DNA of 64,000 nucleotides from an uncultured Acidimicrobiaceae bacterium (GCA_964571765.1 CAZNDH010000008.1:141-64140); one strand, 5' to 3'. Positions 18,698-56,870 are shown, counted from the first letter of the stretch. Numbers and translations are program-made. Notes: generated by a model not told the origin, from the sequence alone.

Positions 18698-19501
18698 ATG
18701 TCGTTGCCGATCAGCTTTCTCTCCGACTTCGGGCATCAGGACGAGTTCGTCGGGGTGGTCCACGGTGTTCTCGCCCGGCTCTCACCGGAGTCGACGGTGA
18801 TCGACGTGGGCCATGGGTTCGCCCCGGGAAACGTGAGGGCCGCCGCCCTCGCCCTGACCCGGGCTATCCAGTACCTCCCCGAAGGGGTGTGCCTGGCGGT
18901 AGTCGACCCGGGGGTGGGGTCGGCACGGCGGGCGCTCGCCGTCCGCAGTGAGTGGGGCTTCTTCGTCGGGCCCGACAACGGGCTGCTCTCCCCGGCAGTG
19001 GCCATGACCGGGGGGGCGGAGCAAATGGTCTCCGTCGAGAACCCCGAGGTCATGATCCCCTCACCCGGCGCCACCTTCCACGGTCGCGACCTCTTCGCTC
19101 CCGCGGCCGCCCTGCTCGCCTCGGGTGAGGCGGTGTTGGAGGACCTCGGCCCTGAGGTCTCCGGCAACGAGTTGGTCCCGCTCCTCCTCCCGCTCACCGA
19201 GGCCGACGGCTCCCGGGTCACCGGTGAGGTCTGGTGGGTCGATCGCTTCGGCAACGCCGAGACGAACATCGCCCCCGAGGATCTGGCGGCCTTGGGAGCG
19301 GCTCCGGGCGACACGGTCACCGTCCGTGTGGGCCCGGCCATCCACAATCTCGCCTGGGTGATCAGCTATTCCGATGTCGAGGAAGGACAGGGCCTGGTCC
19401 ACGTCGACTCCGCCGGCCTGATGGCCCTGGCGGTCCGCGGCGGTCGCGCCGATGAGACTTTCAACCTCATGGACGGCGTGGCGGTGACTATGGCCCGGTG
19501 A
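18698..19501 (+). CDS. SAM hydroxide adenosyltransferase family protein (DUF62)
   Basis: ISFLSDFGHQDEFVGVVHGVL, VVDPGVGSARR and FHGRDLFAPAAA are family motifs. Confidence 0.8.
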   Translation: MSLPISFLSDFGHQDEFVGVVHGVLARLSPESTVIDVGHGFAPGNVRAAALALTRAIQYLPEGVCLAVVDPGVGSARRALAVRSEWGFFVGPDNGLLSPAVAMTGGAEQMVSVENPEVMIPSPGATFHGRDLFAPAAALLASGEAVLEDLGPEVSGNELVPLLLPLTEADGSRVTGEVWWVDRFGNAETNIAPEDLAALGAAPGDTVTVRVGPAIHNLAWVISYSDVEEGQGLVHVDSAGLMALAVRGGRADETFNLMDGVAVTMAR

Positions 19502-19607
19502 AGATCAGCCAGAGCTGGACGATCCCGGCGACGGCGATCATGGCGAGAAGGATGACGAGGACTATCGCTGTGGCCGGTCGCACCGGCCGAAGAGAGTACA
19601 AAATTGT

Positions 19608-19633
19608 CGGGGCCCCCGTGAAAGGGGGCCCCG
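19608..19633 (-). terminator. Putative intrinsic terminator (minus-strand sense)
   Basis: A perfect 10-bp stem (CGGGGCCCCC / GGGGGCCCCG) with a 6-nt loop. On the minus strand it is followed by ACAATTTTG. Confidence 0.5.
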
Positions 19634-19825
19634 ACTACATGAAGGAGGGTTCCGTTACCGTGGGGCGGGCTGGGAGGCTATCCGTTCACACCAAGGACAA
19701 AGAACGTGCCCTAGGCATGAGGGGAACGGAGTTCCCTCCTTCCTGCATGCCTCCACATTATCGACCACTGTGCGTGTTAGTTGAGCACTTTCTGCGAATT
19801 CCTGTTGGGTCAGAAATCAGCAGGA

Positions 19826-20863
19826 TCAACCGGTAGATGGAGCCGCCGACGGGTCCCGGGCCTCGGTCATCCCCGGGTCCTCGTCGGGCCCCTCCCCAGG
19901 CTCCTCGCCGTCGCCCCCGTCCGGGACATCGGCGAGGCCACAGTCGACCAGGACCGTCTCGGTGTCGCCACCGCCGAAGCGCACCCGCTCGAAGGCGACC
20001 ACCGCGGCCAGTTGCTCCTCGCTGAGAGCACCTCCGAATCCGGGCATGACGCCCCCACCGCCGACCGGCTTGTCGGTGTCCCCGTAGGTTCCCCGGCCCG
20101 CATTCTGGAACCCGGTCGTTCCCAGGTTGACCCACTCGATATGGTCGGAGCAGGCCCCAAAGGTGGTGATCACCCCGGTCATGGGGAGCGCCACGCCTCC
20201 CTGGCCCTGGGCGCCGTGGCAGGAGGAGCAGTTGACGCCTCCCACCGCACCGCCGGCATAGATCGTCCCCCCGATGGCGATGAAGTCCTGACCGTCGGTC
20301 GCCGGCGTCCTCCCGGTGAACTCGGAGCCGTCGCAGTCGACGATCTCGCCGGTGATCACGTCGGTTCGCAACTCTGTGGCCTCTCCGCACTCGCCGGTGG
20401 CCGCCCCACCCAGGGCGAACAAGGCGATGAGGGGGGCTGCGAGCAGAAGGGAGGTCAGCCAGCGAGGGATGGCGGTGTTGGTTCGCTCCCTGATCCCGGC
20501 GGTGGGCACGGTGATCACCTCAGGGAGGTGGGCCGCCTCCCGGGATGTGACTTCGGCGGGCGGGGTGGCCACGGTGGCCGCCACCGGGGCTGGTGTCGTC
20601 GGTACCGGGGGCGCTGGGGACGCTTCCGGCTCCTCAGATGGGGCCGCCTCCTCGCTGGGCGGCTCCGCCGGGGGCGCCGTCTCAACAGTGGGCTCGGGCA
20701 CACCGGAGACACCGGTGGCGGGGATGTCACCACCGCCGGCCCAGGCGGTGAGCACCTCATCGACGGTGGCGCCGGTCTCGGCTGCCCTGGCCGCGGCGGA
20801 GCGCTGCACCAGGGGCTCGGGAAGGCCCATGACGGCGGCGGCTGCGCTGAGAAGCTCGCTCAT
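19826..20863 (-). CDS. Membrane-anchored monohaem c-type cytochrome (CcoP-like) with N-terminal cytoplasmic module
   Basis: A single haem-c motif CSSCHG and a VMPGFGGALSEEQLAAVVAF class-I cytochrome c tail. One TM segment (WLTSLLLAAPLIALFAL). The stop-start overlaps the upstream gene. Confidence 0.75.
   Translation of the reverse strand: MSELLSAAAAVMGLPEPLVQRSAAARAAETGATVDEVLTAWAGGGDIPATGVSGVPEPTVETAPPAEPPSEEAAPSEEPEASPAPPVPTTPAPVAATVATPPAEVTSREAAHLPEVITVPTAGIRERTNTAIPRWLTSLLLAAPLIALFALGGAATGECGEATELRTDVITGEIVDCDGSEFTGRTPATDGQDFIAIGGTIYAGGAVGGVNCSSCHGAQGQGGVALPMTGVITTFGACSDHIEWVNLGTTGFQNAGRGTYGDTDKPVGGGGVMPGFGGALSEEQLAAVVAFERVRFGGGDTETVLVDCGLADVPDGGDGEEPGEGPDEDPGMTEARDPSAAPSTG
20729..20863 (-). 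repeat. About 135-nt segment duplicated at 21487-21621 (5' ends of the two cytochrome c genes)
   Basis: The two stretches align by eye at high nucleotide identity (not computed). They encode SELLSAAAAVMGLPEPLVQRSAAARAAETGATVDEVLTAWAGG and SELLSAAAAALGLPEPLVRRSAEARAAETGTTVDEVLTAWAGG. Confidence 0.8.
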
Positions 20864-21621
20864 CGGTCGCCCATGGTTACCGACTCGGAGAGATAGGCGA
20901 CCAGCGCCTCGAGATGTTCCTCACGGAGGTTGTGGGGAGGATGGCCCCCCGCACCGGCCACCACTGCGGCGGTCTCGGCCTGATTGAGACGGGCGCCCAC
21001 GTTGGCCAGGTCGGGGCCGAAACGACGTGAGCCCAGGACCTGGTTGGTGTCGTTCAGAGTGACGGCGCCCAGTCCGACGTCGGCGATCACCGGCCGGACC
21101 ATCTGGGTGTGGCAGGCGGCACATCCGAGGTTGACGTAGACCGAGCGGCCCTCCTCTGCCAGGGCACCGAAGGGGAGCGCCGAGGTGCGTTCGCCTGGGC
21201 TGTCGATGGGCACCGACGGTCCGATCAACGCCACCAGCAGCACCACCAGGAACAAACCGACCACCCCGGCGAACATCTTGAGCGGTTTGTCGGCCGCACC
21301 AACCAGCACTGGAGGCCTGTAGGGAACCATGGCCTCCTCGGGGAGCTCCTCAGCCGCCGGTGGTGTCGGGGCGGTGGGAGGAGGCGCCTCGGGCGTCGCC
21401 GGGGCCTGATCCCCCTCCGGTGGGACACCCTCATCCACCGGGGATTCCTCGGCCTCGCCTGCAGTTGGGGAGGCAGTGGGTGCCGGGGCACCACCCGCCC
21501 AGGCGGTGAGCACCTCGTCGACCGTGGTCCCGGTCTCGGCGGCCCGGGCCTCGGCCGACCGGCGCACCAGGGGCTCGGGGAGCCCGAGGGCGGCGGCGGC
21601 TGCACTGAGCAACTCGCTCAC
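20860..21621 (-). CDS. ccoO: CcoO-like monohaem cytochrome c subunit (cbb3 oxidase subunit II family)
   Basis: GRSVYVNLGCAACHTQMVRP and LGSRRFGPDLANVGAR match CcoO/FixO signatures. GTG at 21621 forms a GTGA overlap with the CcoN-like stop. The track's longer N-terminus overlaps that gene. Confidence 0.75.
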   Translation of the reverse strand: MSELLSAAAAALGLPEPLVRRSAEARAAETGTTVDEVLTAWAGGAPAPTASPTAGEAEESPVDEGVPPEGDQAPATPEAPPPTAPTPPAAEELPEEAMVPYRPPVLVGAADKPLKMFAGVVGLFLVVLLVALIGPSVPIDSPGERTSALPFGALAEEGRSVYVNLGCAACHTQMVRPVIADVGLGAVTLNDTNQVLGSRRFGPDLANVGARLNQAETAAVVAGAGGHPPHNLREEHLEALVAYLSESVTMGDR

Positions 21622-23054
21622 GAGCTCTGCTCCACGGTGACCAGCATCTCCTGGGTGCGCGCCGGGCCCCTGACCACCGTCCCCAGGATGGTTGAGGCGT
21701 AGGCCGCATGACCGAGGAAGGCGATCAGCGATGCGCCCAAGGCGAACAGCAGGAAGGTGTCGACCACCGGCCCGGCTCCGGCCCCCCATCCCTCCCCGGC
21801 ATCGACATAGGCGCCCGAGTTGGACCCGGCTATCCAGGAGTAGCCGCTGACCAGCCCGGCGGCGGTGAGGAACACCAGGACGCCGATGGAGCCGATCAGG
21901 GTGAGGCGTATGAAGCTGCGGGCTCGCCTCGGCGAGGGCATGTCCCTGCCGATCAGTCGGGGCAGTGCGGCAAAGGACACCCCGGCGACGAGCAGGACGC
22001 CGACCCCGGCGATGGCGGTGTACTCCACCGCCTCCCAGAAGGAGGTGAGAGTGGCCACCGCCGCCACCGAGCGGAAACCGGCTATGGCGGCCAGGGCGCC
22101 CACCCCGGCGGCGAGGAAGAGCCCGTACACCCCGGCGGACACCCCCGGGTGGTCACCGAGACGCGACCAGGAGCCCTCCAGCGTCAACGATACGTTGGCC
22201 GCGTTGGCCACGGCACCGATGGGGAAGGCCAGGCCCAGGGCGGCGGCGACACCGGCCAGCCAGCCGGGCCCCGGCCCGAAGATCAACTGGGCAGTGCCCC
22301 ACCAGACCGAGGCGAGGCCAAGTGACCAGAACCCCACCGCGGCCAGGGTGCGGCTGGCCAGTGGGACGTCCAATTCCCTGACGACGGTGTAGTAGAAGAC
22401 CCCGGTGCCCAGCGTCATCACAACCATGGTCACCAGACCGGCGGCGAGGAACATGTCGTTATAGGCCATGGCCACCGGGGTGAGGAACGGCGAGTGCCCG
22501 GCGGCGTAGGCCGCGTAGAGCAAGGGAAGCCAGGTGACCCCGCCCAGGACGAACCAGATGGTCACATACGAGTGCTTCTCCTCCCGCTCTGCGATGGTAC
22601 GGGCGGTGACCAGGAACGGCACTGCCAGCACCCCCACCATGGGGAGGTCGATCCACCAGGGGAGGGAGAACGGCTGGCGGCCGCTACCCAGCCCCAACCC
22701 GATGACGACAACCCCAAGTAGGACCAGGCCAGCTGTTCCGAGGAGCCCCAGTCCAGCGAGACGAGGGTTCCACAGCCTGACCCCGGTCAACCTGGGAAGC
22801 ACGTAGTACACCCCACCAACCAGAGAGATCACCCCGAATCCGAGGAGTAGGACCAGGTTCGCCATCGGCTCGAGCCGGCCGAAGCTGATCAGGGAAAGGC
22901 CGGCGAAGCGGAGCGAGGCCAGGGAGAGCACCGCGAGCAGGCTGCCTGCCACAAGGAACAGTGCCCCGACCACGAAATGGGTGACCGCCACGCGGTCCCC
23001 CTCGGCGCCACCGCCGAGGATGGCCCTGATGTCGGTTGTTCGGGTGCCGGTCAA
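21618..23054 (-). CDS. CcoN-like haem-copper oxidase subunit I homologue lacking canonical His ligands
   Basis: A 478-aa, 12-TM-like protein. Blocks SFGRLEPMANLVLLLGFG, YYVLPRL, LPWWIDLP and EEKHSYVTIWF resemble cbb3 CcoN. The protein has only 5 His, with no HH or HxH pair (see findings). Confidence 0.75.
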   Translation of the reverse strand: MTGTRTTDIRAILGGGAEGDRVAVTHFVVGALFLVAGSLLAVLSLASLRFAGLSLISFGRLEPMANLVLLLGFGVISLVGGVYYVLPRLTGVRLWNPRLAGLGLLGTAGLVLLGVVVIGLGLGSGRQPFSLPWWIDLPMVGVLAVPFLVTARTIAEREEKHSYVTIWFVLGGVTWLPLLYAAYAAGHSPFLTPVAMAYNDMFLAAGLVTMVVMTLGTGVFYYTVVRELDVPLASRTLAAVGFWSLGLASVWWGTAQLIFGPGPGWLAGVAAALGLAFPIGAVANAANVSLTLEGSWSRLGDHPGVSAGVYGLFLAAGVGALAAIAGFRSVAAVATLTSFWEAVEYTAIAGVGVLLVAGVSFAALPRLIGRDMPSPRRARSFIRLTLIGSIGVLVFLTAAGLVSGYSWIAGSNSGAYVDAGEGWGAGAGPVVDTFLLFALGASLIAFLGHAAYASTILGTVVRGPARTQEMLVTVEQSS

Positions 23055-23292
23055 ACGTCTTCCTCACAAGGGACGAGACGGCGGGAGCTTAACCCGGCGA
23101 TCCGTCGCACTCGCCTTGGTGCCTGGAGGGAATGGCCAACGGCTGAGAAGACGTCCTCTCCTCCCCGCCCAGTCGTGTCGGAGGTGCGGGGTCGCATCCA
23201 GAGGTACTCCACGCCGAACTCAGGGTGCCGGGTGTTTTGTGGTACAAACATCGTGACAGGGGATCGAGAGACGCGAGGTCCCGACACCAGCC

Positions 23293-23925
23293 ATGTACCG
23301 CCTTGCAGAACTGAGCGACACCCGGCGCCGAACCATCGGTGCAGCCCTGCTGATCGCCGGGCTCCTCGGTTTGGTGGTAGGGGTAGTCGTCATCCACTGG
23401 GCCTCCTTTCCCGAGACCGAGGTGGTCAACGGGCTCGAGGTCCCGGTGGTGGTCGACTACCTGAACTGGTTCCCCAGGGGCTCACTGTGGCTAGGGCTCG
23501 GTTATCTCATCGTCTTCGGGGCAACCAGCCTGGCCCTGGTCGGTGGCACATTCCTCTGGGTCCTCAACCAGAAGATGACCTGGGCCCGGGCCACCATCGC
23601 GGCCATGCTCACCTGGATAGCCCTGGTCTTCTACCTGGGGATGGTCCCCTCGGAGTTCCTCACCTTTGCCCAGACCGACCTCGACTGGTCGTCCCAGCGG
23701 ATCGCCATCACGATTCCACCGATCCTGGTCCTGGGCAACGAGATCGACATCAGCTGGGCAGCGGTACGCGACTCGATCCAAGCGGGATACAGCATGGGCA
23801 TGTTGGGGCTGGCCATCGTGCTCGGGCTCCAGATTCAGAAGATCAAGGACGGCAGGCCGGCCAAGGCGCAGCCCTCCGAGTTGCTCTCCCCCTATGGTCG
23901 GCCGCTGCTGAGGGGTGACCGCTGA
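23293..23925 (+). CDS. Polytopic membrane protein, first gene of the b6c-type operon
   Basis: ORF track entry with 4-5 hydrophobic helices. TGATG overlap with the ferredoxin gene. I recognise no family. Confidence 0.5.
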   Translation: MYRLAELSDTRRRTIGAALLIAGLLGLVVGVVVIHWASFPETEVVNGLEVPVVVDYLNWFPRGSLWLGLGYLIVFGATSLALVGGTFLWVLNQKMTWARATIAAMLTWIALVFYLGMVPSEFLTFAQTDLDWSSQRIAITIPPILVLGNEIDISWAAVRDSIQAGYSMGMLGLAIVLGLQIQKIKDGRPAKAQPSELLSPYGRPLLRGDR

Positions 23926-24374
23926 TGCCCAGAGGCGTCGTCGACGAGACCCCGCCGATCAGGGATGACTACCAGCTGGCACTGGTGGAGGGCGACTACT
24001 TCGCCGACAAGCTGCGTCCCAAGCAGTTTCTCCACATCGACCAGTCGGAGTGCATCCTCTGCGAGGGGTGTGTCGACATCTGCCCATGGAAGTGCATCCA
24101 CTACCTGTCGCTCGACGCCATTTCCGAAGGGGTCAACGTCGACCATCCCGCCGACGATGCGCAGAACTACGGCTTCTTCATCGTCGACGAGGACGAGTGC
24201 ACCCGATGTGCCCTGTGCATCGACCGCTGTCCCACCGGGGTGATCTCCCTGGGCAAGTTCGAGGGCTCGCTGGCCGAACAGGCCGCCGAGCTGGGGCTGG
24301 ATCGCCGTCCCTGGGACTTCGACACCGGCCAACGTGACTTCAAGAACGGCTACTCGTACGGTATGCGCTGGTAG
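23925..24374 (+). CDS. 2[4Fe-4S] ferredoxin-like protein
   Basis: Two cluster motifs: CILCEGCVDICP and CTRCALCIDRCP. Confidence 0.8.
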   Translation: MPRGVVDETPPIRDDYQLALVEGDYFADKLRPKQFLHIDQSECILCEGCVDICPWKCIHYLSLDAISEGVNVDHPADDAQNYGFFIVDEDECTRCALCIDRCPTGVISLGKFEGSLAEQAAELGLDRRPWDFDTGQRDFKNGYSYGMRW

Positions 24375-24383
24375 GGAGGTGTA

Positions 24384-25160
24384 GTGGCCAACGGCAACGG
24401 GAGAACGGGTCTGAAGGACCGGGTGAAGGAGGCCCAGGAAAAGCTCTGGGGCTCACAGGTGGTTGATGCCATCCTCCGCCCGGGGTCTCCCTTCAAGCAG
24501 GGCTACCAGGACAGTCCGCGGAACCGCTCCTACGTGGTCATGAACAACGTCCTCTACCACCTGCACCCGGTCAAGGTGAAGCGCCACGGGGTGAAGCTCT
24601 CCTACACGTTGTGTCTAGGCGGGCTCAGCTTCTTCCTCTTCATCCTGCTCACCATCACCGGCATCTTCCTCATGTTCTATTACACCCCGACCACCGAGCT
24701 CGCCTACGCCGACATCGAGCGTCTCTCCACCGACGTGGCCTTCGGGACCATGGTGCGCAACCTGCACCGTTGGGGGGCCCACCTCATGGTCCTATCGGTG
24801 TTCCTCCACATGAGCCGGGTCTTCTACCACGGCGCCTACAAGCCGCCCCGTGAGTTCAACTGGGTGATCGGGGTCATCCTCCTCTTCCTCACGCTGTTCC
24901 TCTCATTCTCGGGGTACCTGCTCCCCTGGGATCAGCTCGCCTACTGGGCTGTGACCGTGGGCTCCAACATGGCGGCGGCTTCACCGGTTATCGGCGACCA
25001 GGTCCAGTTCGCCCTGTTCGGAGGGGTGGAGGTCAGCGGGGCCAGCCTGCTCCGCTTCTATGTCCTTCACGTGCTGGGCTTTCCCTTCATCATCGTCATC
25101 TTCATGGCCGTCCATTTCTGGCGTGTCCGCAAGGACGGCGGGATCTCGGGGCCTCTGTAG
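24384..25160 (+). CDS. petB: Cytochrome b6-like (N-terminal four-helix half of cytochrome b)
   Basis: GGGAGG lies upstream of the GTG start. The motifs RNLHRWGAHLMVLSVFLHM, YLLPWDQLAYWA and LHVLGFPFIIVIFMAVHF supply the haem-b ligand histidines. Confidence 0.9.
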   Translation: MANGNGRTGLKDRVKEAQEKLWGSQVVDAILRPGSPFKQGYQDSPRNRSYVVMNNVLYHLHPVKVKRHGVKLSYTLCLGGLSFFLFILLTITGIFLMFYYTPTTELAYADIERLSTDVAFGTMVRNLHRWGAHLMVLSVFLHMSRVFYHGAYKPPREFNWVIGVILLFLTLFLSFSGYLLPWDQLAYWAVTVGSNMAAASPVIGDQVQFALFGGVEVSGASLLRFYVLHVLGFPFIIVIFMAVHFWRVRKDGGISGPL

Positions 25161-25168
25161 GTGTAGCC

Positions 25169-26110
25169 ATGGTGGACATACCCGAAGACCTTCTGAGGAG
25201 ATCTGCGGAGGCCAAGGCCCGCGCCTTGGGCGTCCCGGTTGAGGACGTCCTCGCCGAGATGAAGGGGGAGGGCCCTCCGGTGGAGATCCCCCCACCCGAC
25301 GAGCCGCCCGCACCGGAGACCGCCGAAGAGGTCGCCGCGGAGACCGAGCCTGATCCGGAGCCGGTCCTCGAGGTCCCACAGGAGGACCAGCCCGACGCCG
25401 AGGTCGAGGTCGAGGCCGACGGCGATCAGGAGGTGGACCCGGAGGAGCCCAAGGTGGCGGTCTACGACGAAGAGCCGGTCCCCGAGCCCGAGCCGGTGGC
25501 GGCACCGCCTCCGGGCAACGGAGGGGGCCGGGTGGCCGCGTTGGTGACCCCGCGTCCGGTGGTTCCACCCACCGGTGTCCCTGAAGGGGTCCGTACCCAG
25601 CGCCTGCTCACCGTGGTCAAGGCGCGGGCCATCCAGAACGTCAAGGCCGAGCCCAGCGACAAGGTCAACACGTGGCCCCACCTGATGCTCCTCGAGTTCG
25701 GTGCCCTGCTCGCCATAACCGGCCTCTTGGTGATCATGGCGGTGGTAATCCACTCGCCCTTGCTCGACCCGGCCAACCCCAACGCCACACCCAACCCATC
25801 CAAGGCGCCCTGGTACTTCCTCGGCCTCCAGGAGCTGCTCAGCTACTTCGACCCTCAGATCGCCGGTGTGATGATCCCGCTGTTCATCGGGATCATCGGC
25901 TTCATGGCAATACCCTTCGTCGACAAGAACCCGTCCACCCGGCCCAGTGACCGCAAGTTCGCCATCATGCTGTACTCGATCTTCCTCGCCGGGTCGGCCA
26001 CGCTGACCATTTTCGGTGTCCTCTTCCGAGGTCTCGGGTTCAACTTCTCCTATCCGTGGCGGGACGGGATCTTCTTCGACGACCTACTCGACTGGGTGCA
26101 CTTCGAATGA
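25169..26110 (+). CDS. petD: Cytochrome b C-terminal half (subunit IV-like) with long acidic N-terminal extension
   Basis: PSKAPWYFLGLQELLSYF is the PEWY-type Qo motif region. The N-terminus MVDIPEDLLRRSAEAKARALGVPVEDVLAEMKG repeats the module seen on the two cytochrome c genes. Confidence 0.85.
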   Translation: MVDIPEDLLRRSAEAKARALGVPVEDVLAEMKGEGPPVEIPPPDEPPAPETAEEVAAETEPDPEPVLEVPQEDQPDAEVEVEADGDQEVDPEEPKVAVYDEEPVPEPEPVAAPPPGNGGGRVAALVTPRPVVPPTGVPEGVRTQRLLTVVKARAIQNVKAEPSDKVNTWPHLMLLEFGALLAITGLLVIMAVVIHSPLLDPANPNATPNPSKAPWYFLGLQELLSYFDPQIAGVMIPLFIGIIGFMAIPFVDKNPSTRPSDRKFAIMLYSIFLAGSATLTIFGVLFRGLGFNFSYPWRDGIFFDDLLDWVHFE

Positions 26111-26991
26111 CCTTCACCAACATGGTCCTGATCGGGGTGGCCGTCTTCGCCATCCTCGGCGCCATCGGAGCCTTCACCATCGCCTTCCGCCGCTCCCAGG
26201 CAGCCAGACCCCGGTCACCGGTGGAGGGGGTCTCCGAGGAGACCAGGCGGGCCGATCGCTCCCTGGTCGGGGTGAGGGTGGAGCCGATTGTGGTGGAGAT
26301 GGCCGAGCCGGAAGCCGAGGTCGAAGAGGGGCCCGAAGAGGTCGAGGAGCCGGACGCTGTCTCGGTCCGGCTGGTCGAGTCCCAGCGAGTGATCGAGGTC
26401 TCCCCCGAGGAGTCCGGAGTGAGCCGGCGCCAGTTCTTCAACCGGGCGATGAACGCCACCTTCTTCTCCTTCCTCGGCTTGATGGGAGTGAGCTCCCTGG
26501 CGATGTTCTGGCCCCGGCTGACCGGAGGGTTCGGAGCGGACATCGACGCCGGTGGGGTCACCGACCTGCAGACCCAGGTGGTGGCTCCCGACGGCTCGGT
26601 GGTGCCGGTGTTCGTCCCCGAGGCCCGGGCCTACGTGGTACCGGCACCCGACACCCTCTCCGAGCAATTCGTCGACCAGCCGGTCGCCGCTGCCGGCCTG
26701 ATGGCCCTCTTCCAGCGTTGTGTTCACCTCGGATGCCGGGTGCCCTGGTGTGCCACGGCGGTCGGCTTCGAATGCCCCTGCCACGGTTCCCGTTACAACG
26801 CCATCGGCGAGTACTTCGGAGGCCCCGCCGGCCGTAACCTCGACCGCTTCGCCGTCGAGCTCAGCGGCGACCGGTTCATCATCCGCACCGGGACCATCAT
26901 CGAGACCCCTCGCGCCCCCGCCCTCTCGGTGGCCTACCCGCAGGGCCCGAGTTGCATCGGCGTGGTCGGAGAGGACGAGGAAGACCACTAG
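26107..26991 (+). CDS. Rieske [2Fe-2S] protein
   Basis: ATGA overlap with the previous gene. The motifs CVHLGC and CPCHGS are present, with an internal SRRQFF twin-arginine-like segment. Confidence 0.9.
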   Translation: MTFTNMVLIGVAVFAILGAIGAFTIAFRRSQAARPRSPVEGVSEETRRADRSLVGVRVEPIVVEMAEPEAEVEEGPEEVEEPDAVSVRLVESQRVIEVSPEESGVSRRQFFNRAMNATFFSFLGLMGVSSLAMFWPRLTGGFGADIDAGGVTDLQTQVVAPDGSVVPVFVPEARAYVVPAPDTLSEQFVDQPVAAAGLMALFQRCVHLGCRVPWCATAVGFECPCHGSRYNAIGEYFGGPAGRNLDRFAVELSGDRFIIRTGTIIETPRAPALSVAYPQGPSCIGVVGEDEEDH

Positions 26992-27007
26992 TGGGGCCGA
27001 TGCCGGC

Positions 27008-28705
27008 ATGACCACCGAGATCATCACCGTCCTCGCCGTTATTGCCGGGATCGCCTGGCTCGGTGTGATGCTGGTCGCCGCATTCCGCAACCGCGGAGGC
27101 GAGGAGGTCCCCCCCAACCTGCAGCCCGGGATCGATGACCAGCAACTCGAGACCCGGCGGCTCGAGGGTGGTCAGAAGGCGGCGATCGTCTTCTCCGCCT
27201 TCCTCGCGGTGGCCCTCCCCCTCCATTTCCTCTCTGAGCCCAGCCGCCAGGCCGGCTTCGTCGAGGAGTTCGCCGAGGCCTCGGTGTCCCGGGGCGAGTC
27301 GCTGGCAATCGAGTTCGCTTGCTTCAGCTGCCACGGCCCCCTCGGGGCGGGCGGGGTGGCTCGTTTCGTCGAGCAGCGTTCCGGGGTGACTGTGGACTGG
27401 TTGACCCCCCGGCTCGACGACATCTTCTACCGCTACGGCGACGACGAGGTGGCCTTCTGGATCACCTATGGCCGTCCCAACACCCCGATGCCTCCTTGGG
27501 GCCTGGCCGGGGGTGGCCCGATGAACGAGCACCAGGTGCAGGATTTGGTCAGCTACTTGCGCACCATCCAGCGACCCCAGCAGGAGGTGGCGAACCAGGC
27601 GGCCGCGGCCCCGGGCAGCGAAGCGGCCCGGCTAGCCGGTGCCGACGCCGCGGTCGAGGCGGCGATCATCGACCAGTTGCAGGTGATAGCCGAGATGGAC
27701 CAGGCGCCCGAGGACCTCGCATTCGTTGGTCCTCTCGCCGAGAGAGCTCGCCAGGTCTTTGACGGGGCAGGCTCCGGCTTCGACACCGATGCCGACGGGC
27801 TCAGCGACGTCGCCGAAGTCGAGCTCACCGAGATCTCTGAGGCCGCCTATCTGTACTTCCAGGCGTTCGATCCCATCCAACTCGACCCCGAGGTAGCCGA
27901 CGCAGAGCTATTCGACGAGGCGATGGATCGGCTCCGCCAGGCGGCTCAGCGGGATCCGATCCTCCGCCCCCAAGTGGACGTCATCGAGAGAATCCTGGAG
28001 ACCGCCGAAGGGGAGGACACCGACGGCGACGGCATCCCCGACGCCGCCGAGACCCGGATCAACGCCCAGCTGACCGAGGCGGCCAGGGCGACCATCCCCG
28101 GTGAGGTGGCGACGGTGGTCCGTCTCGATCCGTCCAACCCGGAGACCACGTCGGGAGTGCCCGACCGCACCGCGGCGAGCAGGCTGGTGGGCGCACTGGA
28201 GTCGGTGGCGGTGGCCAAACGGGTCCTGGTGGAGAACGAGGACCGGATCAGGCCGGCCGAGGAGGCCGGGCTCGCCTTCCTTCGTCAGGCCCAACGAGAA
28301 CGGCGGTGGGATGTCGATGTCCCCGGTGTCGCCGCCGCCATGGGAGCCACCGAGGGGGAGGCTGCTCGAGCGGTCGGGCTGTTCAACGCCAACTGCGCCC
28401 GTTGTCACACCGCCGGCTTTTCGGCCGGCATGGCCTTCACCCAGGAGGTCGGGTCCGGTGGCTTCGGCCCGGCCCTATGGGAAGGCCGGCCGGTGGTCCA
28501 GTTCGGCGAGGCCCCCACCGACGAGACCCAGACCGACCTGTTGGTCGATTTCCTAACCAACGGCTCGGAGCCTCAGCGGCCCTACGGGCTCAACGGGGTG
28601 GGCACGGGCCGGATGCCAGGGTTCGGTCCCGTACTCCCGGAGTCCGACATCGAGCTTCTCGCTCGTTACCTGAGATCGGGCAACCTCAGCGGGAGGGAGG
28701 AATAG
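27008..28705 (+). CDS. Membrane-anchored dihaem c-type cytochrome (QcrC-like) with about 250-aa insert between the haem domains
   Basis: Haem motifs CFSCH (27320-27334) and CARCH (28394-28408). N-terminal TM segment. The start ATG at 27008 is in frame within track ORF 26720-28705. Confidence 0.8.
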   Translation: MTTEIITVLAVIAGIAWLGVMLVAAFRNRGGEEVPPNLQPGIDDQQLETRRLEGGQKAAIVFSAFLAVALPLHFLSEPSRQAGFVEEFAEASVSRGESLAIEFACFSCHGPLGAGGVARFVEQRSGVTVDWLTPRLDDIFYRYGDDEVAFWITYGRPNTPMPPWGLAGGGPMNEHQVQDLVSYLRTIQRPQQEVANQAAAAPGSEAARLAGADAAVEAAIIDQLQVIAEMDQAPEDLAFVGPLAERARQVFDGAGSGFDTDADGLSDVAEVELTEISEAAYLYFQAFDPIQLDPEVADAELFDEAMDRLRQAAQRDPILRPQVDVIERILETAEGEDTDGDGIPDAAETRINAQLTEAARATIPGEVATVVRLDPSNPETTSGVPDRTAASRLVGALESVAVAKRVLVENEDRIRPAEEAGLAFLRQAQRERRWDVDVPGVAAAMGATEGEAARAVGLFNANCARCHTAGFSAGMAFTQEVGSGGFGPALWEGRPVVQFGEAPTDETQTDLLVDFLTNGSEPQRPYGLNGVGTGRMPGFGPVLPESDIELLARYLRSGNLSGREE

Positions 28706-29062
28706 ATGTTCCGTGAGCTGTTCCGATCCCTGCTCTCGGCGAACATGTTCGTCACCGGGATCATCCTCACCCTGGTCTCGGTCCTCCTCTTCTACGGGTC
28801 GATGTATCTGTTCAACTACACCAACTTGGGCAAGAAGCTCGGCTTCTTGGTGACCGGTGCCGCGGTCTTCGGCTGGTTGTCGATCAGCTCACTCCTGTTC
28901 GTGGTCTACGCCCCACGGGGTCCCCGTCCGGCGAGCATCGAGGGGCTCAACGCCTTCGAAGTCCGGATCATCCCCCTCACCTACCTCATGGTCGCGGCGG
29001 TCCTCTTCTTGGTATTCCTCACCGCCCTCCACCAGTACGAGGAGACCCGCGAAGGCGACTAG
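28706..29062 (+). CDS. Small three-TM membrane protein, last gene of the b6c-type operon
   Basis: The ATG comes immediately after the upstream stop. Three hydrophobic helices. Confidence 0.5.
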   Translation: MFRELFRSLLSANMFVTGIILTLVSVLLFYGSMYLFNYTNLGKKLGFLVTGAAVFGWLSISSLLFVVYAPRGPRPASIEGLNAFEVRIIPLTYLMVAAVLFLVFLTALHQYEETREGD

Positions 29063-29152
29063 GTGTCTCCCGCCCGAGCAGGGACTTCGTACTTCGTTCC
29101 CCTGCAGTCACAGCACGAGTAGCGGGAGCCAGCAGGCAGGGAGCTTCAGGGC

Positions 29153-29761
29153 TCAGCCGTAATAGCTGAGGATTTGGAGCTCGTGGGAAAGGTCGACCTG
29201 TCGCACCGCCACCGACGGGGGCACATCCACCCTGACCGGGGCGAAGTTGAGGATCGAGGTGATCCCGGTGCCGACCAGGGCGTCGGCCACCTTCTGGGCA
29301 GCCCCGGCAGGCACCGTGAGAATGGCCATGTCGAACAACTCGGCGGCGCGGTCCTCAGGCATCAGATCCAGAGAGCGCACCTCGATTCCCGAGACCTTCT
29401 CGCCGATCCGTCTCGGGTCGACGTCGTATATGACTGCCACGTCGAATCCCCTCCGAGTCAGGCCGGAGTACCGGGCCAGGGCAGTCCCCAGGTTGCCGGC
29501 GCCGAAGATCGCGACCCGCCGACGCTTCTCGATGCCCAGCTCCCGGCGTATCCGATCGCGTAGGTTGGCCGCTGGATAACCCACCCCGCGGATCCCCTGG
29601 AAGCCGAGCGCCGCCAGGTCCCGCCGGACGTTGGCCGCGGTCACCCCTCCGGCCTCGGCCAGCTCGTCGGAGCTGACCGTTTCCCGGGAGCCGTTGCCGT
29701 CTTCGAGGAGACGCAGATACCTGGGGAGCCTGACCACGGTGGCCCGGGAGAGGTGAGTCAT
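29153..29761 (-). CDS. rex: Redox-sensing transcriptional repressor Rex
   Basis: MTHLSRATVVRLPRYLRLLE..., VTAANVRRDLAALG and the Rossmann motif VAIFGAGNLGTALA. The upstream part of track ORF 29153-30427 is antisense to the next gene. Confidence 0.9.
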   Translation of the reverse strand: MTHLSRATVVRLPRYLRLLEDGNGSRETVSSDELAEAGGVTAANVRRDLAALGFQGIRGVGYPAANLRDRIRRELGIEKRRRVAIFGAGNLGTALARYSGLTRRGFDVAVIYDVDPRRIGEKVSGIEVRSLDLMPEDRAAELFDMAILTVPAGAAQKVADALVGTGITSILNFAPVRVDVPPSVAVRQVDLSHELQILSYYG

Positions 29762-29830
29762 CGACAGGCGACGATACATCCGCTCACCGGTTCTGCTTTC
29801 TGCCCGGGCGCCTCCTACGCTCGGGACTCG

Positions 29831-31069
29831 ATGAGCTCTTTTGGGGTCCTGGTCGTGGGTGGTGGCCCAGCGGGAAGCGCCGTTGCTCTGTGGCTGGCCA
29901 GGGCCGGCCACCAGGTGACCATGGTCGAGGCCAAGGAGTACCCCAGGGAAAAGACCTGCGGCGACGGCCTCACCCCGAGGGCGATCCTCCAACTCGATGA
30001 GATGGGTTTCGACTTCGACGTTCCCGGCTTCCACCGCATCGATGGGCTGCGTTCCTTTGCCGGAGACGAGCTGATGATCGAGATGCCCTGGCCGGAACAC
30101 AGCCGGTTCCCCAACTGGGGTGGGGTGATCCGCCGGCGTGATCTCGACGAGCAGGTCGCCCGTCTCGCCGAGAAGGAGGGGGTGGCAATCCGGGAGAAGA
30201 CCACGGCGACCCCGATGATCGAGGAGGGGAGGCTGGCCTTGGTCGAGCTCAACAGTGGCGGGGAACGCGAACTGGTCACCCCGGACATCACGGTGATCGC
30301 CGACGGCTCGATGAACCGCTTCGGGAGGGAGCTGGGGACCGCCCGGCGCAAGGACTACCCGCTGGGCCTGGCCGCCCGCGGCTACTACAGCTCCCCGCGA
30401 TCCGACGACCCCTTCCTGGAGAGCCAACTCGACCTGCGAGACTCCTCGGGGGCGACCATGCCCGGATATGGATGGGTGTTCCCGCTAGGGGACGGGACGG
30501 TCAACGTGGGAGTCGGACTGCTCTCCACCTTCAAGAGGTGGAAGCACGTCAACACCACCCACATGATGAACGACTATGCGGCCAATGCCCCCGAGTACTG
30601 GGGTCTCTCCGAGGGGACCAAGCTGACCAAGCCGGTGGGTGGCAAGCTGATCATGTCGTTCTCCCGGGGCCCCCTGGTCGGCGCCAACTGGATAACCATC
30701 GGCGACGCTGCCGGCTCGATCAACCCGTGGAACGGAGAGGGGATCTCCTATGCCTACGAGACTGGCCGTCTTGCCGCCGACTACGTGGGTCAGGCGATCG
30801 CCACCGGCGACCTCGGGTTGCTCCGACGCTACCCCCAGCGCCTCGAGGACGAGTTCGGGCTCTACTACAAGATGGCCCGGATCTTCGTCAAGTTGATCGG
30901 CAACCCCCCGGTGATGCGCACCCTGGCCCACACCGGCCTGCGTAACCGGCCCCTCATGGAGTGGACCCTCAAAGTGATGGCCAACCTTCTCGACGAAGAC
31001 GAGAAGCACGTCGGCGAGCGGGCTTACGACGCACTGGCCGCCATCGTCCGCACCCTTCCCACCAAGTGA
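29831..31069 (+). CDS. Geranylgeranyl reductase-family FAD-dependent oxidoreductase (MenJ-like candidate)
   Basis: FGVLVVGGGPAGSAVALWLARAGHQVTMVEAKEYPREKTCGDGLTPRA is the family N-terminus. Confidence 0.8.
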   Translation: MSSFGVLVVGGGPAGSAVALWLARAGHQVTMVEAKEYPREKTCGDGLTPRAILQLDEMGFDFDVPGFHRIDGLRSFAGDELMIEMPWPEHSRFPNWGGVIRRRDLDEQVARLAEKEGVAIREKTTATPMIEEGRLALVELNSGGERELVTPDITVIADGSMNRFGRELGTARRKDYPLGLAARGYYSSPRSDDPFLESQLDLRDSSGATMPGYGWVFPLGDGTVNVGVGLLSTFKRWKHVNTTHMMNDYAANAPEYWGLSEGTKLTKPVGGKLIMSFSRGPLVGANWITIGDAAGSINPWNGEGISYAYETGRLAADYVGQAIATGDLGLLRRYPQRLEDEFGLYYKMARIFVKLIGNPPVMRTLAHTGLRNRPLMEWTLKVMANLLDEDEKHVGERAYDALAAIVRTLPTK

Positions 31070-40155: not shown

Positions 40156-40800
40156 ATGGGAATCATCACCGAGCTGATCAAGGGACTGGCGGTCACCGGC
40201 AAGACCATGTTGGGGACCATCACGGGCAAGGAGCTGGTCACGACCCCCTATCCCGATGTGATGAGAGAGAAGCCCCAACGCTTCCACGGGCGTCACGTCC
40301 TCAACCGCTACCCGGATGGGATGGAGAAGTGCATCGGCTGCCAGCTGTGCGCTGGGGCCTGCCCCGCCGATTGCATCTACGTGCGGGGGATGGACAACGA
40401 CCCCGAGCACCCGACCTCGCCTGGGGAGCGCTTCGGCTACGTCTACGAGATCAACATGCTCCGCTGCATCTTCTGCGGCCTGTGTGTCGAGGCTTGCCCC
40501 ACCGAGGCGATCACCATGACCCACCTCTTCGAGATGTCGACCACCACCCGCGAGGACGCCATCTACACCAAGGAGACGCTGCTCATGGACGACCGGGGCC
40601 GGGTGCCCCACATGTTCCCCGACGATCCTCTCGCCGACCTCGCCGAGCTCGACCGGGCTGACGGGTGGCTCCGGGCCACCTCCCCTGCCGGGATTGCCGC
40701 CTACCAGGGCGAGGTGATGTGGCAGGGGACGCCGGGGCCGGCGGAATGGGATCCCGAGCCGTCCCAGGAGGCAGGCGACCGCCGAGGGACGTCCGGATGA
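40156..40800 (+). CDS. nuoI: NADH-quinone oxidoreductase subunit I (operon 1)
   Basis: CIGCQLCAGACP and CIFCGLCVEACP. Confidence 0.95.
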   Translation: MGIITELIKGLAVTGKTMLGTITGKELVTTPYPDVMREKPQRFHGRHVLNRYPDGMEKCIGCQLCAGACPADCIYVRGMDNDPEHPTSPGERFGYVYEINMLRCIFCGLCVEACPTEAITMTHLFEMSTTTREDAIYTKETLLMDDRGRVPHMFPDDPLADLAELDRADGWLRATSPAGIAAYQGEVMWQGTPGPAEWDPEPSQEAGDRRGTSG

Positions 40801-56373: not shown

Positions 56374-56870
56374 TGACGACCGAGCCGAGGCGCAATATCC
56401 CCGGCCGGGGGTTGCTCAAAGGGATGGCGGTGACTTTCGGCACCATGGTGCGCACCATCTTCCGTCCCAAGCGTTACCTGCGGACGGTCAACTACCCCAA
56501 GGACAAGGAAGTCCCGGTACCCCGGGCCCGGGGGGTGATCGCCCTCGACCAGGAGGCGTGCACGGTGTGCATGCTCTGCGCCCGGTCCTGTCCCGACTGG
56601 TGCATCTACATCGAGGGTCACAAGGAGGAGATCCCGCCGGACAAGCCTGGCGGCCGGATCAAGGTCCGCTCCAAGCTCGACCGGTTCGACATCGACTACG
56701 CCCTGTGCATGTACTGCGGGATCTGCGTCGAGGTGTGTCCCTTCGACGCATTGTTCTGGAGCCCGGAGTACGAGTACTCCGAGCCCAACATGGGCGCCAT
56801 GCTCCACGACATGGACCGTCTCCAGGACTGGCTGGAGACCGTCCCTGACCAACCTGGGCTCGAGAAGTGA
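56373..56870 (+). CDS. nuoI: NuoI-like subunit (operon 2)
   Basis: CTVCMLCARSCP and CMYCGICVEVCP. Confidence 0.9.
   Translation: MTTEPRRNIPGRGLLKGMAVTFGTMVRTIFRPKRYLRTVNYPKDKEVPVPRARGVIALDQEACTVCMLCARSCPDWCIYIEGHKEEIPPDKPGGRIKVRSKLDRFDIDYALCMYCGICVEVCPFDALFWSPEYEYSEPNMGAMLHDMDRLQDWLETVPDQPGLEK

Follow-up and report, generated by a model that had tools for sequence, protein, structure and literature searches.

Complexes built around a Rieske protein and a cytochrome b are usually seen as closed machines that pass electrons from quinol to cytochrome c, and the only well-discussed exceptions, the complexes of anammox bacteria (reportedly also treated by Kartal et al. in 2013 and de Almeida et al. 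in 2016), are hard to study. The anammox complexes Kuste4569-4574 and Kustd1480-1485, like Dibrova's subfamily G, carry an NAD(P) oxidoreductase (PMC5600118; PMC12954380), and in AlphaFold3 models of anammox complexes haem cN/bN and FAD have four iron-sulfur (FeS) clusters between them, on the side of the cytoplasm (Hauser et al. 2025, PMC12954380). For the b6f complex, ferredoxin input at haem cn has long been proposed in connection with cyclic electron flow (PMC5600118). A split cytochrome b was already reported in 2014 in Ilumatobacter coccineum, Rubrobacter, Patulibacter and Conexibacter (Kao & Hunte, PMC4122944). Here we describe, in a stretch of 64,000 nucleotides (nt) from an uncultured Acidimicrobiaceae bacterium (GCA_964571765.1; the whole stretch is called the window below), a plus-strand operon (23293-29062) that encodes the organism's only complex III, of the b6c type, and that opens with a membrane protein (the anchor) and a ferredoxin with two [4Fe-4S] clusters. 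The locus is the norm for its lineage, not an oddity, and we favour, with moderate confidence, the reading that anchor and ferredoxin would form a cytoplasmic-side two-cluster electron branch at haem ci/bn of this complex.

The host genome is a metagenome-assembled genome (MAG) of 2.17 Mb, 90% complete, from an uncultured Acidimicrobiia bacterium; the window has a G+C content of 64-71%, and the nearest loci in public genomes belong to Acidimicrobiia MAGs, whose cytochrome b6 is 84-93% identical. An initial annotation of the window had placed ten genes here, and all ten were recovered at or near the same positions. Seven of them form the plus-strand operon, in which the gaps between neighbours run from -4 to +16 nt and no strong terminator was found, and they follow one another in this order:

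23293-23925, plus strand: 210-amino-acid membrane protein (the anchor), without a Pfam or NCBIfam match; four transmembrane (TM) helices in its AlphaFold model.
23925-24374, plus strand: 149-amino-acid 2x[4Fe-4S] ferredoxin, matching Fer4 families, with two CxxCxxCxxxCP motifs.
24384-25160, plus strand: cytochrome b6, four helices (PF00033, 2e-50).
25169-26110, plus strand: subunit IV, three TM helices, Qo motif APWY (PF00032).
26107-26991, plus strand: Rieske [2Fe-2S] protein with one N-terminal TM helix (PF00355; 61.9 bits with the b6f PetC model).
27008-28705, plus strand: membrane-anchored dihaem cytochrome c with CFSCH and CARCH (motif positions 105 and 463) and two Cytochrome_CBB3/Cytochrom_C domains.
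28706-29062, plus strand: 118-amino-acid small-subunit candidate with three hydrophobic segments (the 3-TM protein), without a family match; it abuts the dihaem c stop codon in a TAG/ATG junction.

A TGATG overlap joins the anchor gene to the ferredoxin gene, as had been seen initially, and the same 1-nt overlap recurs in at least nine related loci; the ferredoxin gene in turn ends 9 nt upstream of b6. The most likely start of the Rieske gene is ATG 26107, in an ATGA overlap with the subunit IV stop. In the dihaem cytochrome c a long acidic insert separates the haem domains, with a sub-threshold match to the TSP3_bac repeat (23.4 bits; cut-off 25), and homologues of the 3-TM protein were found by tblastn in more than 40 Acidimicrobiia loci as well as in other classes.

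Cytochrome b is indeed split as in b6f and b6c complexes, with PF00033 and PF00032 in separate genes, and the features of that type occur together here: the split b, four bis-His ligands, CxGG, a Qo motif of the PxWY type and the Rieske motif CxHxGC...CxCH. The genome search for qcrCAB and ctaCDEF that the initial annotation had proposed returned no canonical qcrCAB, and the b6 of the window is the genome's sole cytochrome b; it did return one canonical A-type oxidase of the ctaCDEF kind, in a caa3-type cluster on contig C11 that encodes haem O synthase and subunits I, II and III, with a CxxCH domain fused to subunit II, and no cytochrome bd was found in the genome. Because there is a single cytochrome b, no bd and one caa3-type oxidase, the operon must be the organism's complex III rather than an accessory system.

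The four haem histidines of b6 (H128, H142, H229 and H244, by alignment to the b6 of 7r0w) are invariant in 94 loci. Its CxGG cysteine, C77, is the predicted site of covalent attachment of haem ci/cn; C77-L-G-G is kept in 90 of 90 ferredoxin-type loci, and the motif aligns with YCLGG of cyanobacterial b6, in a pairing of YCLGG with LCLGG. The 90 orthologous loci also agree without exception at H59, H61, H68, C77, G79, G80, the four haem histidines and R247/R249/K250. At its N terminus b6 carries a cytoplasmic extension of ~55 amino acids with an invariant YHLHP motif; His59, in the part of that motif formed by b6 residues 59-61 (window 24558-24566), is retained also in the NAD(P)-type paralogues described below. 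It may correspond to a His ligand of the 'novel interfacial haem b' that has been predicted for anammox complexes; compared by residue spacing, from their reported positions, the ligands His43/His62 of that haem do not map simply onto His59 of b6. In subunit IV, APWY, W169-P-H171 and E176 are invariant across orthologous loci, and F177 is invariant in 74 Acidimicrobiia loci and present in eight of nine from other classes, with Leu in the remaining one; the WPH...EF stretch is predicted to lie near the expected haem-ci site. The APWY motif assigns the complex to the 'APWY clade' of Kao & Hunte (PMC4122944). Subunit IV also has an N-terminal extension of 165 amino acids, which opens with a module shared with other proteins of the window (see below). 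The Rieske motifs read CVHLGC...CPCHGSRY and include a Ser/Tyr pair (Ser in 76 of the 76 loci scored, Tyr in 75), which is a signature of high-potential Rieske proteins (PMC3509893; PMC12954380).

Among described complexes, those of the b6f type (cyanobacteria and chloroplasts) and b6c type (Firmicutes and Heliobacteria) share with the window the split point of b, the four histidines and CxGG, and the closest PDB relatives of b6 are cyanobacterial and plant b6 (E 7e-49), with actinobacterial QcrB structures at ~1e-24. They differ in having a Qo motif PEWY/PDWY instead of APWY, cytochrome f or a subunit IV-c fusion instead of a dihaem c, no counterpart of the N-terminal b6 extension with YHLHP, and a transient soluble ferredoxin instead of a dedicated, co-encoded one; unlike b6f, moreover, the complex of the window has no PetG/L/M/N and no CCB factors. 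The QcrCAB complex of Mycobacterium and Corynebacterium is found in the same phylum and likewise runs from menaquinol through a dihaem cytochrome c to an aa3-type oxidase, whereas its QcrB is unsplit, of ~540 amino acids, and without haem ci, its gene order is another, and it has no ferredoxin. The actinobacterial models score far below their cut-offs in the window (QcrB NF050120, 119 of 500 bits; QcrA NF050121, 20.9 of 275; QcrC NF050122, 18.6 of 200), while b6 reaches 213 bits with PRK03735 b6. The contrast with qcrCAB drawn in the initial annotation is a difference between lineages rather than a peculiarity of this locus.

A further comparison is with ExtOPQ of Geobacter, since b6 passes the ExtP model (NF040969, 298.5 bits; cut-off 290). 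Unlike in the Ext system, subunit IV reaches only 50 bits with ExtQ (cut-off 150), and no ext multihaem cytochromes, porin or rhodanese lie nearby. The Geobacter ext cluster was considered as a precedent for the ferredoxin and rejected, as the cluster is without a ferredoxin and its ExtM and ExtN are multihaem cytochromes (PMC5877670). The label 'ExtP' has also been given by PGAP/NCBI to the b6 of Egicoccus halophilus and Euzebya pacifica, in which the NF040969 cut-off of 290 is barely passed and no ext genes lie nearby; for these actinobacterial b6 proteins the name is probably an over-extension. Annotation could be corrected accordingly, since respiratory b6 proteins are misnamed 'selenite/tellurite reduction ExtP' and the ferredoxin sometimes 'NuoI'.

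By tblastn, 78 of 80 Acidimicrobiia loci have the order ferredoxin, b6, subunit IV, Rieske, cytochrome c, as far as each contig extends, and the lack of conservation of ferredoxin and membrane genes that the initial annotation had named as grounds against its proposal is therefore not seen. Carriers include Ilumatobacter, Microthrix, Iamia, Aquihabitans, Actinomarina and the acIV lineage, and in nearly all of these loci the ferredoxin start coincides, to within a few bases, with the end of an open reading frame (ORF) for a multi-helix membrane protein. We then took the survey to the phylum, with a sample of 301 Actinomycetota genomes and cut-offs of E <= 1e-8 for the ferredoxin and E < 1e-100 for b6. 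A ferredoxin homologue was found in 128 genomes and b6 in ~125, and in family after family the two are neighbours on the same strand, 40-150 nt apart; the ferredoxin homologue adjoins b6 in ~125 of the 301. All of ten loci examined from other Actinomycetota families have the same gene order, each with a small membrane ORF just upstream of the ferredoxin; the 3-TM gene is detectable in seven of them and rex is nearby in two, and by exact-sequence look-up two of the ten are Egicoccus halophilus (L096) and Euzebya pacifica (L097), of the class Nitriliruptoria. Across classes the ferredoxin remains immediately upstream of b6 at 33-42% ferredoxin identity. For a large part of Actinomycetota beyond the class Actinomycetes, most of it aerobic, the arrangement is thus ancestral. 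As to its novelty, the split b of this lineage was known from the 2014 report (PMC4122944), as were FeS/NAD(P) arms on subfamily-G complexes, and what is undescribed is the variant with ferredoxin and anchor: no published account of this pair in Actinomycetota was found in the limited literature searched.

In the ferredoxin itself, the eight cluster cysteines are invariant in 78 of 78 loci save C95 (77 of 78; Gly in one), and a ninth cysteine, C57, is invariant as well. Conserved extensions flank the cluster domain, with Y16, L18, V21-D22 and PKQF-HID on the N-terminal side and a GYxYGMR tail on the C-terminal side. No signal peptide, Tat motif or hydrophobic or TM segment was found in the protein, which should therefore be cytoplasmic. 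Between near relatives it is the best conserved product of the operon (91% identity, compared with 88% for b6, 66% for Rieske and 60% for cytochrome c). Against PDB sequences, a profile search matched it only to generic diclusters (polyferredoxin, NuoI and HdrA), and public annotations call the protein '4Fe-4S binding protein', 'ferredoxin' or, wrongly, 'NuoI' or 'PreA'. An identity as NuoI, or as a stray NuoI, was considered and rejected: the ferredoxin scores 41.9 bits with TIGR01971 (cut-off 113), does not lie in the nuo operon, and is 30% identical (44 bits) to the genome's own NuoI, whose genuine gene (130 bits) lies 16 kb downstream at window ~40228-40581 (C8:40368-40721). There is also a second NuoI-type gene at window ~56439-56816 (plus strand), weaker at 83 bits and within a 533-amino-acid open frame, and it points to another FeS system in the membrane, complex-I-like or related.

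Outside its own family, the closest relative of the ferredoxin is the C-terminal 2x[4Fe-4S] domain of proteins that combine Fer4_20 and Pyr_redox_2 (48% identity over 89 amino acids, E 8e-18). Such proteins are encoded beside b6 in several related genomes, which have a second Rieske/b6 cluster (L088-L091, at G133:C20, G170:C4, G160:C1 and G299:C1); G160 belongs to the same family as the window genome and G133 to the same order. In these paralogous clusters the gene directly upstream of b6 encodes 615-694 amino acids, in which an FAD/NAD(P) domain (Pyr_redox_2) stands between Fer4_20 at the N terminus and 2x[4Fe-4S] at the C terminus, and the product matches the 'NAD(P) oxidoreductase' as published for the anammox complexes and for subfamily G. 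By this homology, the ferredoxin resembles the membrane-proximal two-cluster piece of the NAD(P) arm, made as a separate protein. The two kinds of locus differ at the haem-ci site: CxGG, Glu176 and His171 are kept in ferredoxin-type loci and replaced in the NAD(P)-type paralogues, which have Tyr or Arg for the haem-ci cysteine and His for Glu and which retain His59, the haem ligands and APWY. The cytochrome c of the paralogous clusters matches the dihaem c of the window over the first haem domain only (~130-150 amino acids). An anammox-like architecture thus occurs in aerobic-type actinobacteria (L088-L091).

Set beside the published accounts of the anammox complexes, the operon of the window is alike in its four-helix b6-type cytochrome b with subunit IV, its haem-cN cysteine, its Rieske protein of the high-potential type and the presence of a cytoplasmic-side FeS protein in the operon. 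It is unlike them in having no NAD(P)/FAD or Fer4_20 domain anywhere in the operon, and hence two clusters instead of four; in having a dihaem instead of a hexa- or octahaem cytochrome c, and a subunit IV of three TM helices instead of five; and in adding the four-helix anchor and the three-helix subunit, in an aerobic host in whose genome this complex III is unique.

The anchor is a membrane protein, as initially annotated, with four TM helices and not the five first assigned. Its AlphaFold model (predicted local distance difference test, pLDDT, 88) has four long helices at 9-37, 64-89, 97-128 and 155-186 and two short beta-hairpins in the outer loops, and a Foldseek search of the PDB with this model found no relative (best E 0.57). 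Homologues of the protein occur across the class and diverge quickly, with identities of 19-66%, but all keep W97, P119, D160, Q182, S199 and G202, and the C terminus has a conserved S-x-YGRPL motif. Since positive charges precede helix 1 and the number of helices is even, both ends, including the conserved tail, are predicted to be cytoplasmic. In other classes the equivalent ORF is shorter, and there too the last helix is followed by basic residues and the tail ends in Gly-Tyr-Lys/Arg. These tail features and the TGATG coupling would fit a role as the membrane partner of the ferredoxin.

From the gene content, motifs, conservation, synteny and ferredoxin homology observed here, we infer a physical association, a contact topology and a direction of electron flow as follows. 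Complex III would act as a menaquinol:cytochrome c oxidoreductase of the b6c type, its dihaem cytochrome c feeding the caa3 oxidase encoded elsewhere; we take the quinone to be menaquinone and presume all redox potentials of this organism from knowledge of the family. Anchor and ferredoxin would be an extra module on the n-side, present throughout the lineage and made in a fixed ratio through the TGATG overlap. The ferredoxin may dock on the cytoplasmic face of b6/subunit IV, held by the conserved tail of the anchor, and its two [4Fe-4S] clusters would then connect haem ci/bn, over a short path, with a soluble partner of low potential. The preferred direction would be input, from reduced ferredoxin through haem ci to menaquinone, which would make the complex a built-in ferredoxin:quinone reductase, comparable to the cyclic-flow route proposed in b6f; because the full Qi-site apparatus is retained (the CxGG Cys, and the Glu and His of subunit IV), we lean slightly toward input over output within this reading. 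Two 2-oxoacid:ferredoxin oxidoreductase genes in the genome (C15:32471-33157 and C20:11887-12528, one of them within a 1244-amino-acid open frame) are possible sources of reduced ferredoxin in an aerobe. The low-potential branch that the initial annotation had suggested is thus one that we too infer, and it is reasonable given that the NAD(P)/FAD subunit beside the paralogous b6 has an FeS tail homologous to the ferredoxin.

Several points weigh against such a branch, or against input as its direction. A few genomes of one family (f53) have b6 and no ferredoxin match at the survey cut-off, and the AlphaFold2 monomer of the ferredoxin, from a 53-sequence alignment, is poor (pLDDT 52.7). Reduced ferredoxin could equally be re-oxidised by other enzymes, such as those of the second NuoI-like cluster at ~56.4 kb. 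The combination of a Ser/Tyr Rieske protein with menaquinone, finally, energetically favours output, as has been argued for anammox.

The explanation that survives best beside the two-cluster branch, with which it is compatible and not mutually exclusive, concerns the surroundings of the operon. The plus-strand operon faces a three-gene, translationally coupled operon on the minus strand, closed by a strong terminator at 19606-19635, and rex follows on its other side:

19826-20863, minus strand: CcoP-like, membrane-anchored mono-haem cytochrome c (Pfam Cytochrom_C/Cytochrome_CBB3) with one CxxCH (CSSCH) and an N-terminal cytoplasmic 'handle' module.
20860-21621, minus strand: CcoO/FixO-like mono-haem cytochrome c (CAACH) with an N-terminal handle (PF02433, 1.4e-12; TIGR00781, 45 bits, cut-off 200).
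21618-23054, minus strand: CcoN-like 12-helix protein of the haem-copper-oxidase fold (PF00115, 1e-23, 84 bits; TIGR00780, 90.6 bits, cut-off 583).
23055-23292, no strand: divergent intergenic region with two conserved motifs.
29153-29779, minus strand: rex, redox-sensing repressor (Put_DNA-bind_N and CoA_binding), convergent with the plus-strand operon.

The CcoP-like cytochrome has a single TM segment (residues 136-154) and an ATGA overlap with the gene upstream, and the CcoO-like gene starts at GTG 21621, in a GTGA overlap with the CcoN-like stop. Divergent from rex, at window 29753-31069 (plus strand) and between the complex III operon and the nuo genes, lies a gene for an FAD oxidoreductase of the geranylgeranyl-reductase family, which could be a MenJ-like menaquinone side-chain saturase.

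On this explanation the two divergent operons would be co-regulated under Rex, and the ligand-less CcoN, CcoO and cytochrome c would be physical partners of the b6c complex, which we consider possible and advance with some doubt. Relative to 9g6b_A/3mk7_A, the CcoN-like protein shows H60>A, H207>A, Y251>V, H257/258>AQ, H345>V and H347>Y, so that all six His ligands and the cross-linked Tyr are lost from this protein, initially noted as ligand-less, and it is predicted to be incapable of reducing oxygen at a binuclear centre. It is alike to cbb3 CcoNOP in the CcoN fold, the CcoO- and CcoP-like c cytochromes, the gene order and the translational coupling, and unlike it in the absence of haem/CuB ligands and in scores far under the equivalog cut-offs. 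Every one of the 25 homologous loci shares the ligand loss, even at 23% identity, with Actinomarina and a further class among them, and so the 'remnant' of the initial annotation is better described as an old, maintained, non-catalytic protein of the oxidase fold, accompanied by two c cytochromes that are intact, than as a decaying one.

Of 80 Acidimicrobiia loci, 26 have a divergent CcoN-b6c pair like the one seen face to face here and described initially; other classes show traces of it (L094, L099), and the proposed supercluster is accordingly a frequent, non-obligatory association: most Acidimicrobiia loci, and those of Nitriliruptoria, have the ferredoxin-b6c operon without a CcoN-like gene nearby. 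A physical link between the CcoN-like set and b6c is hinted at by the handle, a cytoplasmic N-terminal module of ~40 amino acids that subunit IV has in common with the two c cytochromes of the minus operon. The handle of the CcoP-like cytochrome is 81% identical to that of the CcoO-like protein, and a fourth copy, 67% identical to the CcoO-like handle, is found on a 414-amino-acid polytopic membrane protein (C11:4648-5892) encoded 2.2 kb from the nearest gene of the caa3 cluster (ctaE/D/C with fused cytochrome c, ctaB).

An alignment of nine orthologous intergenic regions revealed the conserved motifs GACGGCGGGAGCtTAAC at 23077-23093 and TGTGGTA(C/G)AAAC at 23238-23249, the latter ~45 nt before the anchor ATG and resembling an extended -10 element. 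The control region of 238 bp claimed in the initial annotation has that length on the condition that TTG 23054 is the start of CcoN; relatives have ~150-170 bp there. Compared with eight orthologous loci, the divergent region of the window holds ~100 nt extra (23140-23237). A scan of 19400-30000 for the sigma-70 consensus promoter gave no match, and no Rex operator (TTGTGA-N6-TCACAA with at most three mismatches) lies in 23055-23292, the window as a whole having five where 8.9 are expected by chance. The gene rex is adjacent and downstream, as annotated, and it adjoins the operon in many loci (L003, L004, L006, L009, L010, L013, L015-L017 and L021, and L095 and L100 from other classes), which suggests a functional tie with the operon; since the shared region has no Rex operator, however, any regulatory link would be suggested by synteny and not by a binding site.

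Alternatively, one could envision the two clusters carrying electrons outward, which we consider unlikely. Quinol oxidation at the Qo site would be bifurcated, the high-potential electron passing through Rieske and dihaem c to the oxidase and the low-potential electron through bL, bH/ci and the two clusters to a ferredoxin-type acceptor, in what would amount to a reduced form of the mechanism by which the anammox complexes are proposed to produce NAD(P)H. Such a flow would suit the Ser/Tyr pair of Rieske proteins above +300 mV, which 75 of the 76 scored loci have, and also the presence in NAD(P)/FAD subunits of an FeS tail homologous to the ferredoxin; and with menaquinone at ~-70 mV, symmetry would put haem bL at ~-450 mV, sufficient for [4Fe-4S] (the argument of PMC12954380). 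However, this is the sole complex III of an aerobe that has caa3 and lacks bd, in which draining the b chain would sacrifice the Q cycle, CxGG, Glu and His of the Qi site are strictly retained, and the operon is without an NAD(P)/FAD domain.

It is less probable still that anchor and ferredoxin are not subunits at all and instead attach haem ci on the n-side or assist assembly, the role of CCB1-4 in chloroplasts and cyanobacteria. This could account for the observation that the gene pair tracks b6 with CxGG and is absent from the paralogous clusters without that cysteine, and we know of no haem-ci attachment system outside cyanobacteria. The genome was found to have no CCB1 or CCB2/4 homologue, a result that is not diagnostic because the search was likewise negative in the B. 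subtilis control. However, complexes without haem ci have an electron-transfer domain homologous to the ferredoxin, the very high conservation of the ferredoxin and its place in a coupled first pair fit a stoichiometric subunit better, the anchor has no similarity to CCB families and, to our knowledge, no CCB factor is an FeS protein. Least probable of all, and by a reckoning that we regard as slight, is an anchor-ferredoxin pair that shares the operon and exchanges no electrons with b6c: the fast evolution of the anchor would allow it, but the ferredoxin stays immediately upstream of b6 across classes at the low identities given above, and the homologous domain in the paralogous clusters is fused to a subunit that is likewise encoded immediately upstream of b6.

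Extended to the lineage, the two-cluster branch would mean that complex III of Acidimicrobiia (including marine Actinomarina and freshwater acIV) and of Nitriliruptoria is a ferredoxin-coupled b6c complex, in which the two-cluster subunit exchanges electrons directly with haem ci/bn, a generalisation that we offer tentatively. If true, complex III of these organisms would either act as a built-in reductase of menaquinone by ferredoxin or oxidise quinol with electron bifurcation, making low-potential reductant in air, and theirs would be the first natural, genetically fixed link from FeS to haem cn, a link debated for chloroplast cyclic electron flow. A minimal version of the NAD(P) arm, with two [4Fe-4S] clusters in 149 amino acids and its own membrane partner, would then be fixed in the sole complex III of widespread aerobic Actinomycetota, among them the cultured hosts Ilumatobacter, Aquihabitans, Euzebya and Egicoccus. 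Should the ferredoxin sit under haem ci, this complex would offer a tractable system for FeS electron injection at haem cn and for low-potential tapping of bifurcation at the Qo site.

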